DNA of 64,000 nt. Origin: Anaeromyxobacteraceae bacterium. GTDB lineage: Bacteria > Myxococcota > Myxococcia > Myxococcales > Anaeromyxobacteraceae. Positions 1,370 through 12,728 of this stretch are shown piece after piece. Each line of letters starts with the position of its first letter. Positions within the stretch are counted from its first letter, which is position 1. The stretch is from contig JASGHJ010000001.1 in the NCBI GenBank assembly GCA_047602405.1, forward strand, positions 1,600,001-1,664,000, read 5' to 3'. The position numbers were made by a program, and so were the translations under genes. The notes under the pieces were generated by a model that did no database searches, had not been told where the DNA came from, and saw only the letters and a program-made list of their open reading frames with translations.

Positions 1370-1951
1370 ATGGCGCTCCTCCGCTCGAAGACCCCGGACG
1401 GCTGGCTCGACGTCGCGCTCGGCGCGATGGACCTCACGCTCTCCGACCACGCCCACCTCGAGAAGAAGGCCGCCGCGAGCGCGCTGAAGCTCGTCGCCGA
1501 CCACCCGGACCGGCCCGGCCTCGTGCGCCCGCTCGCGAAGCTCGCGCAGGAGGAGCTGCAGCACTTCCTCGCGGTGCTGACCGAGCTCGGCCGCCTCGGG
1601 CACCCGCTCCGGCCGGACGAGGGCGATCCCTACGCCCAGCAGCTCCGCCGGCTCGTGCGGAGCGGCGGCGTGGAGCGGCTCGTGGATCGGCTGCTCGTGG
1701 GCGCGCTCATCGAGGCGCGCAGCTGCGAGCGGCTGTTCCTGCTCGCGGAGGGGCTCGCGCGGCCGGGCGGCGATCCCCGGCTCGCCGAGCTCTACGACCG
1801 GCTCGCGCGGAGCGAGGGCGGGCACGAGACGCTGTTCCTGGATCTCGCGCGCGAGGTCGGCGGCGCGGCGGTCGACGCGCGCGCCGACGCGATGGCGGAG
1901 GCGGAGGCGGCGATCGCGGCGGAGCTGCCGGTCCTCGCGAGGATCCACTGA
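1370..1951 (+). CDS. miaE: tRNA isopentenyl-2-thiomethyl-A37 hydroxylase
   Basis: DHAHLEKKAA, EELQHF, LIEARSCERL and SEGGH di-iron motifs. Confidence 0.9.
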   Translation: MALLRSKTPDGWLDVALGAMDLTLSDHAHLEKKAAASALKLVADHPDRPGLVRPLAKLAQEELQHFLAVLTELGRLGHPLRPDEGDPYAQQLRRLVRSGGVERLVDRLLVGALIEARSCERLFLLAEGLARPGGDPRLAELYDRLARSEGGHETLFLDLAREVGGAAVDARADAMAEAEAAIAAELPVLARIH

Positions 1952-10283: not shown

Positions 10284-10700
10284 TCAGGCCCCGATCACGT
10301 GGAAGCCGCTCGCGCGGGCGGCGGCCGCGAGCGCATGATCGTGCGTCGCGAAGTGAAGCGGCTCGTTCACCTCCCACCACGCCTGCGCCGAGACGAGGTG
10401 GATGGCATCGAGCGTGCCGAGGGCGACGGGCAACGGCTGCGAGGCGCGCATCAGGACGCTGCGGGTGAGCTCCACCACCTCGAGCTCCTCGAAGAGCCGG
10501 TAGGCCTCCTCGCGCCGCCGGGCGATGGCGCGGAAGTCCAGGGAGGGGGCGGCGAAGCGAAGACGATCGAGCGTGCGGAGGAGCTCGGTCTCCGTGAGCG
10601 CGCTCGTCACGGCGAGCTCGATCTCGTCCCACTCCTGGAGCGGGTCTCGTTCCCCGAGGAGACGGCGCACCAGCACCGAGGTGTCGAGGTAGGCCCTCAC
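10284..10700 (-). CDS. vapC: PIN-domain VapC toxin
   Basis: AYLDTSVLV, TSALTETE and LGTLDAIHLVSA...FATHD. Confidence 0.88.
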   Translation of the reverse strand: MRAYLDTSVLVRRLLGERDPLQEWDEIELAVTSALTETELLRTLDRLRFAAPSLDFRAIARRREEAYRLFEELEVVELTRSVLMRASQPLPVALGTLDAIHLVSAQAWWEVNEPLHFATHDHALAAAARASGFHVIGA

Positions 10701-10957
10701 CGCTTGTTCCGGTCCTCGAGGACGAGCGCGAGGCTGGAGACCGGGAGGTCGAGCGGATCCAGGCGCCGGAGGCGCTTCTTCGCCTCCGAGAACGGTCGCA
10801 AGGCCGGGCGGATGACGATCCCGCTCGGAGGGCCGGCCGGGACCACCTGCGCGACGGGCGTGGTCCGCTCCATCACGAGCAGCACCTCGCCCTGCTTCAC
10901 CTCCCGCAGGTGGCTGGAGAGGTGCGCCTTGAGGTCCGCGATTCCGACCTTCTTCAT
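10697..10957 (-). CDS. Phd/YefM family antitoxin
   Basis: MKKVGIADLKAHLSSHLREVKQGEVLLVMERTTPVA; 4-nt overlap with vapC. Confidence 0.88.
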   Translation of the reverse strand: MKKVGIADLKAHLSSHLREVKQGEVLLVMERTTPVAQVVPAGPPSGIVIRPALRPFSEAKKRLRRLDPLDLPVSSLALVLEDRNKR

Positions 10958-10992
10958 GACCACATGATGGTCATGACAGGTCATGTTGTCAA
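10954..10992 (-). promoter_or_regulatory. Sigma70-type promoter (TTGACA-17-CATCAT) with overlapping operator palindromes; probably leaderless
   Basis: Minus strand reads TTGACA ACATGACCTGTCATGAC CATCAT GTGGTC ATG; inverted repeat TCATGACCA-N5-TGGTCATGA. Confidence 0.7.
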
Positions 10993-11021: not shown

Positions 11022-12059
11022 CTACCCCAGCGCCACCTTCAGCATCGCGTCGTTCTCGGCCGGCATGCCGATCGAGATCCGGATGCAGCCCTCGAGCCCC
11101 GCGTAGTGGTCCTGGCGGCGCACGAGGATGCCGGCGGCGAGGAACTTCTGGTACGCGGCCGCGGCGTCCGGCGTGCGCACGAGGAGGAAGTTGCCGGCGG
11201 ACGGGTAAACCTTCCAGGCGGGGTGCTGCTCGAGCGCCGCGAGCACCCGCGCGCGCTCGGCGCGGATGCGCTCGACGAGCGGCTGCACGTAGCCAGGGGA
11301 CTCGAGCGCGGCGAGCAGGATCGCGGTCGTGTGCACCGGGATGCAGAACGGCGGGATGCAGGCGCGGACCACGGACGCCACCCGCCGCGAGCCGAGCAGG
11401 TAGCCCGCGCGGATGCCGCCGAGCGACCAGGACTTCGAGAACGTGCGGAGGATCGCGACGTGCTCGTTCGCGCGCGCGAGCGGCCGGAAGTCTGTGCCGG
11501 CGAACGCCTGGTACGCCTCGTCGACGACGAGGAGCCAGCCCCGCTCGGCGGCGCGGGCCGCGAGCCGCTCCACGTCGGCGGCGGCGAACATCGCGCCGGT
11601 CGGCGCGTGCGGCACCGGGAGGAAGCAGACGCCGGGCGGGCCCGCCATCTCGGCGAGGAGCCCCACGAGCGGGAGGGTGAAGCCGGGCCCGAGCGGGAGG
11701 CCCTTCCACGGCGTGCCCGCCGCGGCGGCGCCGCCCTTGTAGTACGGGAACGCCGGGACCGTATCGAGCACGCTCCGCGCCGCCATCGCGAGCGCGAGGC
11801 AGAGCAGGTTCGAGCCGGGCGCGAGCACCACGCCCTCCTCCGGCCAGCCCTCGTGCCGCGCGAGCGCCGCGCGCACGTCCTCGGCGTGCAGCTCCGGATA
11901 GCGGTTCCAGTCGAGCCGCGCGAGCCGCTCGAGCGCCTTCGCCTTCACGGCGGGCGGGAGGTCCTCGGGGCTCTCGTTCTGGTCGAGCTTGATGCGCGCG
12001 TCGCTCTTCGCGTACGGGTAGTCCGCGACGTTCGCGAGGTGGGGCTTGAAGGCGTCCAT
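11022..12059 (-). CDS. hisC: Histidinol-phosphate aminotransferase
   Basis: IKLDQNESP, NRYP, VVDEAY and LRTFSKSWSLGGIRAGY (PLP lysine). Confidence 0.85.
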   Translation of the reverse strand: MDAFKPHLANVADYPYAKSDARIKLDQNESPEDLPPAVKAKALERLARLDWNRYPELHAEDVRAALARHEGWPEEGVVLAPGSNLLCLALAMAARSVLDTVPAFPYYKGGAAAAGTPWKGLPLGPGFTLPLVGLLAEMAGPPGVCFLPVPHAPTGAMFAAADVERLAARAAERGWLLVVDEAYQAFAGTDFRPLARANEHVAILRTFSKSWSLGGIRAGYLLGSRRVASVVRACIPPFCIPVHTTAILLAALESPGYVQPLVERIRAERARVLAALEQHPAWKVYPSAGNFLLVRTPDAAAAYQKFLAAGILVRRQDHYAGLEGCIRISIGMPAENDAMLKVALG

Positions 12060-12084: not shown

Positions 12085-12267
12085 CTACGGCTCCAGCACC
12101 GCGTTCACCACCACCGCCGCGAGCAGCCCGACGACCGCCGGGCCCGAGCCGCCTCAGGCCCCGCAGCCGAGGGCGGGCACCGCGAAGGTGATCCCCGCCC
12201 CCGCGAGCCCGGCCGCGGCCGCCATCCAGCCGCGGTGCCGCATGAGCCACTCGCGCAACGGCGTCAT
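12085..12267 (-). CDS. Candidate 60-aa membrane selenoprotein with CxxU motif (UGA at 12156-12154)
   Basis: Manual translation MTPLREWLMRHRGWMAAAAGLAGAGITFAVPALGCGA(U)GGSGPAVVGLLAAVVVNAVLEP*; GGAGGTGAT RBS upstream; SECIS-like hairpin after the UGA. Confidence 0.6.
12119..12153 (-). promoter_or_regulatory. Putative bacterial SECIS element
   Basis: After UGA: GGCGGCUCG GGCCCGGC-GGUC-GUCGGGCU; 8-bp stem with a GGUC loop starting 17 nt after UGA. Confidence 0.55.
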
Positions 12268-12287
12268 GTCCGGTACCTATCACCTCC

Positions 12288-12728
12288 ATGGCTTACCTGC
12301 TCGTCCTCTTCGCCCTCCTCGCCGGCGTCAGCCTGCCGGTGCAGGCCGGCGTCAACGCCGCCCTCGCGCGCGGCGTCGGCCGCCCGGAGTGGGCCGGCGT
12401 CGTGTCCTTCGCGGTGGGCCTCGTCGGCATCGCCGCCTACGCGCTCGTCTCCCGCGCGCGCGTCCCGACCACCGCCGAGCTCGCCGGCATCCCGGGCTGG
12501 GCCTGGACCGGCGGCCTCATCGGCGCGTTCTACGTGACGAGCGTCATCCTGCTCACGCCCCGGCTCGGCATCGCGCTCACGATGGGCTTCGCCGTCGCCG
12601 GCCAGCTCGTCGGCGCGCTCGTGCTCGACCAGATCGGCGCGTTCGGGCTCGACGCGCGGCCGGTGACCACGTCGCGCGCGATCGGCGTCGTGCTGCTGAT
12701 CGTCTCGGTGCTGCTCATCCGGCGGTAG
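12288..12728 (+). CDS. DMT family transporter (YdcZ-like)
   Basis: PVQAGVNAAL, WAWTGGLIGAFYV and GQLVGALVLDQIGAFG. Confidence 0.85.
   Translation: MAYLLVLFALLAGVSLPVQAGVNAALARGVGRPEWAGVVSFAVGLVGIAAYALVSRARVPTTAELAGIPGWAWTGGLIGAFYVTSVILLTPRLGIALTMGFAVAGQLVGALVLDQIGAFGLDARPVTTSRAIGVVLLIVSVLLIRR

Follow-up and report, generated by a model that had tools for sequence, protein, structure and literature searches.

Within the window, i.e., the whole stretch of 64,000 nucleotides analysed here, a short minus-strand open reading frame lies between a hisC-like aminotransferase gene and a divergently oriented exporter gene. The earlier note on this DNA had described it as a hidden gene, and the sequence, coordinates and translation given there were reproduced: the frame opens with an ATG at 12267, runs through 37 sense codons, an in-frame TGA and another 22 sense codons, and closes with a TAG ending at 12085. 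The distance of 25 nt from this end to the ATG of the hisC-like gene at 12059 was likewise correct.

12267-12085, minus strand: 60-codon open reading frame with one in-frame TGA read through, predicted helical-hairpin membrane selenoprotein
12156-12154, minus strand: in-frame TGA (codon 38), likely selenocysteine, kept in the genomes G010 and G126
12163..12165, minus strand: Cys35, within a P-x-L-G-C-G stretch that is invariant across three aligned proteins
11022..12059, minus strand: hisC-like aminotransferase, downstream neighbour (TIGR01141, 242 bits, below the cut-off of 276.55)
12288..12728, plus strand: DMT/YdcZ exporter (PF04657), divergent neighbour, with its start codon 20 nt from that of the candidate

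At the TGA, the protein would read C35-G-A-U38, with the cysteine three residues ahead of the TGA. This codon had been placed at the second position of a CxxC-type motif; the motif is there, but the U occupies the last position of CxxU, where it replaces the second Cys. In the genome of the window (G000), the candidate and the hisC-like gene are possibly co-transcribed, and the latter has an orthologue in 37 of 37 genomes of the genus. On the other side, the divergent starts (12267 and 12288) are only 20 nt apart, and the sister genome G010 shows no difference in the spacer or in the first codons of either gene; a TA-rich element in this spacer could serve both strands. Directly downstream of hisC lies an ordinary pair of a PIN-domain toxin and a Phd/YefM-type antitoxin (10284-10984, minus strand). 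The candidate's own neighbours gave no redox clue.

The DNA behind the TGA looks like coding sequence, in line with the earlier note. All codons flanking the TGA on both sides end in G/C, including all 22 codons of the tail. A dicodon model, for which 2684 long ORFs served as the training set, gives the tail a score of 5.0, which corresponds to the 30th percentile of 1500 coding windows, and the other five frames over the same stretch reach at most 1.7. An open 22-codon tail scoring as high follows 14 of 1620 TGA-ending genes (TAG-ending, 66/966; TAA-ending, 10/98). With regard to a two-sided coding signal, the TGA ranks 25th of 18,768, close to that of selD, and for most TGAs ranked above it, the in-frame start of the next gene comes after. 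Comparison with G010, for which 200 kb were fetched and third positions are 14% diverged, revealed four changes within the reading frame, each of them synonymous and located ahead of the TGA, whereas the 69 nt beyond it are unchanged; the spacer behind the TAG carries six differences. Windows as conserved between both genomes as the tail of the candidate were found in 0 of 33 intergenic post-stop regions and in 2 of 118 gene ends.

Searches for relatives led to a second lineage. A phmmer search of 1.84 billion representatives gave four matches, namely the truncated window protein, the entry P0005 and two repeat proteins, which were dropped. P0005 is 37 aa long, 57% identical, and ends in G-C-G-x exactly at the position of the TGA of G000; P0002 is called as a protein of 37 aa as well, so that automated annotation was found to truncate the gene as predicted. 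With an E limit of 0.01, a two-sequence profile of the window protein and P0005 matched six of the 92 family genomes; three of these matches proved real, so that the carriers are 3/92 (G000, G010 and G126). The last of these belongs to another genus of the family (E = 2.4e-7), and here the candidate lies between an arginase-family gene and hisC, as in G000, although hisC is about 1.1 kb away here and a gene on the opposite strand lies in between. Its orthologue reads G-C-G-U-G-G, followed by a hydrophobic helix; the proposed CxxU motif consequently applies to the candidate in the window, but not as a fixed spacing, since G126 features CxU. Conservation beyond the TGA, for which the earlier note had suggested to look, is present: G126 keeps the TGA, the hairpin and the downstream sequence, and 10 of the 23 tail residues are identical to those of G000. 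Changes outside the hairpin are conservative and hydrophobic, and a shared Asn as well as a closing acidic-Pro pair are retained. As a control, post-stop similarity as high as that of the candidate was seen in 4 of 87 G000/G126 orthologue pairs; by eye, these four read into the next gene, and the tail of the candidate is overlapped by nothing.

Further searches for carriers had the following outcome. A single-sequence search of 61 genomes yielded, besides G000, only G010 as a real match, the others (E up to 1) being weak and mostly in long frames. The three-sequence profile gave no further carrier among 92 family or 401 phylum genomes, where one weak match in a long frame was inspected and found to be unrelated, and a DNA pattern of the TGA and hairpin added none among 363 genomes of the order. 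A later protein search gave no further carrier, a plasmid search no match to the candidate, and a search for related loci in genome and metagenome contigs no match. A two-motif DNA pattern, scanned over 34 of 64 parts, hit 5 viral and 119 metagenome loci, none of which proved related once translated. With a second DNA pattern, 14 of the 15 genome loci listed were unrelated, and G126 is absent from these loci yet fits the pattern; L233, also obtained with this pattern, carries the same reading frame and was left out of the counts because it possibly stems from a genome that they already include. Homologues with Cys aligned to the TGA, another point raised in the earlier note, did not appear in close form in the protein, profile or DNA-pattern searches, and only a remote link to DUF6132 emerged. 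All 4 of the 4 sludge and wastewater runs examined carry the allele of the G010 type, including an intact TGA, which is not independent of G010; one contig of run X17 shows a change at 12107, turning Val54 into Glu. Two RNA runs contained no contig across the gene, which has no bearing on its expression.

The genome of the window is equipped for selenocysteine insertion: the genes for which the earlier note had suggested a check, i.e., those for tRNA-Sec, selA, selB and selD, are all present, and selA, selB and tRNA-Sec are found in both other carriers. Its selD itself contains an in-frame TGA, as do three genes for formate dehydrogenase alpha. A genome-wide scan for a TGA beside Cys in coding-like DNA gave five more, with the motifs TxxU, UxxC or UxxC/CxxxxU, all outside the window:

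C1:1570133, plus strand: in-frame TGA
C2:707865, plus strand: in-frame TGA
C2:2215535, plus strand: in-frame TGA
C1:1785035, plus strand: in-frame TGA
C1:1183060, minus strand: in-frame TGA

By their motifs, we take these five to be two peroxiredoxin-type, one Prx-like, one thioredoxin-type and one rhodanese-type selenoprotein gene. The distance from the candidate to selA/selB is about 25-40 kb in G010 (contig C4) and G126 (contig C5), and 1.3 Mb in G000; the proximity in the former two probably just reflects gene order.

Right behind the TGA, the hairpin proposed in the earlier note was recovered at the expected distance.

12144-12125, minus strand: SECIS-like hairpin of -13.9 kcal/mol with an 8-bp stem, whose GGUC loop begins 17 nt past the TGA

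Constraints for bacterial SECIS elements, as set out in PMC13188914, comprise a loop of 3-9 nt with G at the first two positions, located 16-37 nt after the UGA, a stem of 4-16 bp and an MFE of at most -7.5 kcal/mol. The candidate hairpin falls within these limits in our own implementation of the rules, which is distinct from bSECISearch. The same loose rules are also passed by 318 of 1500 ordinary TGA stops and by 7 of 9 other Sec genes of G000; the thioredoxin-type gene and one formate dehydrogenase fail. A stricter rule (loop starting GGT, 15-20 nt away), chosen after the candidate hairpin had been seen, is passed by 6/1500 stops and 2/9 other Sec genes. Moreover, the hairpin region folds no better than its shuffles (z = 0.60, -0.72, 0.53, 0.31), and the pairing probability amounts to 0.32 in a 50-nt fragment of G000 because of a competing fold. 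In G126, the same GGUC loop and the upper six pairs occur 20 nt after the TGA with a pairing probability of 0.99-1.0, and one G-U to G-C change preserves the pair and alters the amino acid. The hairpin alone is weak evidence and within chance; its conservation in G126 is the stronger point.

Taken together, a relative from another genus keeps the UGA, the hairpin and the protein sequence beyond, and because of this the UGA at codon 38 of a real gene is likely read through as selenocysteine; from conservation and machinery, we assign this prediction a probability of about 0.85. The DNA support for read-through comes from two independent lineages, G000/G010 and G126. The candidate as such is a real, rare and small gene, and likely one for a selenoprotein.

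If the TGA were a true stop instead, the product would be a 37-residue single-helix peptide, and the hairpin a non-coding element, e.g., a terminator, a stabiliser or a part of the divergent promoter. The 37 aa listed in the databases (P0002, P0005) would agree with this, as would the coincidence of the most conserved post-TGA bases with the hairpin and the fact that the region must also accommodate the signals of two genes diverging from starts 20 nt apart. However, conservation runs past the hairpin as hydrophobic codons up to the shared Asn and the acidic-Pro pair, 22/22 tail codons end in G/C, and G126 keeps the element although its flanking genes differ. The hairpin is, furthermore, followed by no U-run, and its region has no match in Rfam. 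We consider a true stop improbable. Even less credit is due to a decayed gene, in which a Cys or Trp codon had mutated to TGA and the tail had yet to erode. Such decay could explain the patchy distribution (3/92) and carriers without a canonical DUF6132, but the TGA is common to two genera whose orthologues average 68% identity, the hairpin is kept in both, and there are zero amino-acid changes relative to G010; on these grounds, the pseudogene reading was rejected as very unlikely.

In the reading that we prefer, read-through as selenocysteine, translation would begin at the ATG at 12267. The letters suggested as ribosome binding site in the earlier note, GGAGGTGAT, do occur here; their GGAGG, however, begins at position -20, which is too far upstream, so that a role as RBS is unsupported. 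A GGAGG at this distance precedes 6 of 2528 ATG genes of G000, with a peak at -12 to -10, and the one at the candidate directly adjoins the start codon of the DMT gene on the other strand. More likely, the candidate has a leaderless transcript, with an extended -10 element ahead of its start.

12274..12282, minus strand: probable extended -10 element with TG at -15 and TA at -12

Both dinucleotides fall on genome-wide peaks of a -10-like signal before starts (181 genes for TA at -12, 26 for TG at -15), and the G126 orthologue likewise has TA at -12. The sixth base of the element is A, as in 34 of 295 such sites, and not the commoner T. Genome-wide, TAnnnT peaks at -12 to -16 in G000, and in the upstream DNA of hisC orthologues as examined (L038-L065), a TG-n-TAnnnT element occurs 6-8 nt before the GTG start. 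Leaderless transcripts look common in the genus of the candidate.

The vicinity of hisC raises the option that the short frame acts as a selenium-sensing leader peptide controlling this gene, given that both lie on the same strand 25 nt apart and apparently on one transcript in G000 and G010. Against it, the two are separated in G126 by about 1.1 kb that includes a gene on the opposite strand, and other genomes of the genus have other genes before hisC among the upstream regions listed. We also know of no link between HisC and selenium. A leader function was rejected on account of the separation in G126 and the other genes before hisC in the genus genomes listed, and it is the least probable of all readings considered here.

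The predicted selenoprotein would be a small helical hairpin.

12169..12228, minus strand: first hydrophobic helix, about residues 14-33, following a basic N-terminal segment (hydropathy; low-confidence AlphaFold2 helix 12-33)
12094..12144, minus strand: second hydrophobic helix, residues 42-58, wholly past the TGA (hydropathy, AlphaFold2, similar helix in G126)

Hydropathy shows two segments with the TGA in the loop between them, as the earlier note had described. AlphaFold2, run with Cys for Sec on three sequences, modelled helices 12-33 and 42-58 around a loop with a mean pLDDT of 62.6, and a Foldseek search with this low-confidence model gave no PDB match. The predicted 60-residue two-helix protein would likely act as a membrane-anchored Cys/Sec redox pair. 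Its production would begin with a leaderless mRNA starting near the ATG. SelB, which in bacteria inserts selenocysteine by means of SECIS hairpins, would then likely bind the GGUC-loop hairpin and insert Sec at codon 38. According to the positive-inside rule, the resulting membrane hairpin would keep its basic N-terminus inside the cell and expose the C-x(1-2)-U loop to the periplasm; basic residues lie before helix 1 and, in G126, also after helix 2. Provided that Sec is inserted, chances are about even that Cys35 and Sec38 would cycle between the selenol/thiol and the selenenylsulfide form, passing electrons to or from a partner or scavenging oxidants at the membrane.

Two other roles of the cysteine compete with such redox cycling. 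Residues 1-34 could form a lipoprotein signal peptide, so that Cys35 would be lipidated and Sec left alone in a lipid- and helix-anchored peptide. The basic N-terminus, the hydrophobic helix and the L-G-C that follows are in agreement with this idea, and DUF6132 members carry [IV]-G-C at the same place, near the lipobox consensus; yet, as judged by eye, the -3/-2 residues fit that lipobox poorly, and 34 residues are long for such a signal, so that lipidation appears improbable as well. Less remote, albeit still rather unlikely, is a selenoprotein whose Cys/Sec pair, instead of cycling, serves at the membrane as a ligand for a soft metal (Hg, Cu, Ag) in the manner of MerT or MerF. Metal transporters are known among small membrane hairpins that carry Cys pairs, and the variable spacing (CxxU, CxU, CxxxxC) would suit a flexible ligand loop. 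Table 1 of PMC13188914 contains a putative mercuric transport selenoprotein (PF02411, MerT; C/SxxU), to which the candidate is similar as a small membrane protein with a CxxU-type motif. In contrast to this protein, the candidate has no PF02411 match, nor any match to Mer families in Pfam or NCBIfam, and the neighbours examined include neither mer-type nor other metal-resistance genes. The thioredoxin genes adjoining Cys-form DUF6132 loci also speak against metal binding.

DUF6132 (PF19628, function unassigned) was considered as a presumed look-alike of the candidate and tested. Both share a length of about 60 aa, a basic N-terminus, two Gly/Ala-rich segments, predicted in the candidate to be helices, and a G-C ending helix 1; in G126, the U stands five residues before N-P, as does the second Cys of DUF6132, and helix 2 aligns. 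They differ in the loop, which is G-C-x-x-G-x-C (CxxxxC) in DUF6132 and G-C-G-(x)-U (CxxU or CxU), i.e., two or three residues shorter, in the candidate, where a TGA stands for the second Cys. The read-through protein has no match in Pfam and no meaningful one in NCBIfam, including its selenoprotein models, and none of P0001, P0008 and P0005 reached the PF19628 gathering cut-off (23.2 bits). Against a DUF6132 profile built from 17 of the 21 matches in the phylum, the G126 protein obtained an HHalign score of 26.9 (probability 71%, 48 columns), higher than each of 250 hydrophobic decoys (best 19.2), and its U is aligned to the second invariant Cys. The window protein remained within the decoys (11.9, probability 0.7%), a profile of the three candidate sequences reached a probability of 30%, and HMMER ranks were not significant. 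The candidate family is probably a remote offshoot of DUF6132 and, by these tests, not a member.

With respect to distribution, a DUF6132 gene was not found in G000, G010 or G126. Elsewhere, it occurs in 20 of 301 genomes of the phylum, including 10/13 of the genus, and all 21 matches possess two Cys, so that there is no Sec form of DUF6132 itself among them; in two other phylum samples, 6/141 and 0/141 genomes match. One DUF6132-like locus with a TGA at the position of the second Cys (L295 of G534, selA present; about 1440-1640, plus strand) was not counted, its N-terminal half being out of frame. The Cys-form genes of relatives lie at a genomic site different from that of the candidate, and the syntenic site is occupied by another gene in G000. 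At 5 of 13 Cys-form loci examined, which stem from related genomes and are not independent, a thioredoxin and/or thioredoxin-reductase-type gene is located within 1.5 kb. This may be an indirect functional hint; a point against a thioredoxin partner is that thioredoxin systems are cytoplasmic, and the loop is predicted to be periplasmic. Rather unlikely is the wider proposal of a stand-alone module, in which a 60-residue hairpin from a leaderless mRNA, with a Cys/Sec pair of adjustable spacing on its periplasmic side, would act in a thioredoxin-linked electron relay and replace the Cys-only DUF6132 in the carriers, the CxxU and CxU spacings being derived from an ancestral CxxxxC. A literature search by the name DUF6132 gave no published function.

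Where selenocysteine occurs, the site is usually redox-active or metal-binding, and for this reason it would, if real, point to the functional residue of DUF6132-like proteins. Since gene callers either truncate it to 37 aa or overlook it, the gene stays hidden in protein databases. Compared with the bacterial CxxU/CxU selenoproteins in Table 1 of PMC13188914, the candidate shares an in-frame UGA, a G-loop hairpin within 16-37 nt, a Cys-Sec motif and the Sec machinery. None of the 119 families of that table is DUF6132/PF19628 or, by name, a 60-aa two-helix membrane hairpin, and a real candidate would consequently extend the bacterial selenoproteome by a membrane protein of very small size, from a family absent from that table. 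With 60 residues and natural CxxU and CxU forms, it would be an easy object for studying a Cys/Sec pair in a membrane loop. The weight of the finding is limited by the rarity of the gene, the absent functional clue at the locus and the fact that new selenoprotein families are a routine matter.

The surroundings of hisC in related genomes offer two minor observations. Divergent from hisC, many relatives (L210:2284-2658, minus strand, and many of L038-L065) carry the gene of a small, conserved and Gly-rich membrane protein (about 100-120 aa). Pfam gives no match to this protein, and G000 and G010 lack it at this site. Behind the G126 orthologue of the candidate (L210:1740-2200), a repeat about 80 nt long occurs several times in tandem.
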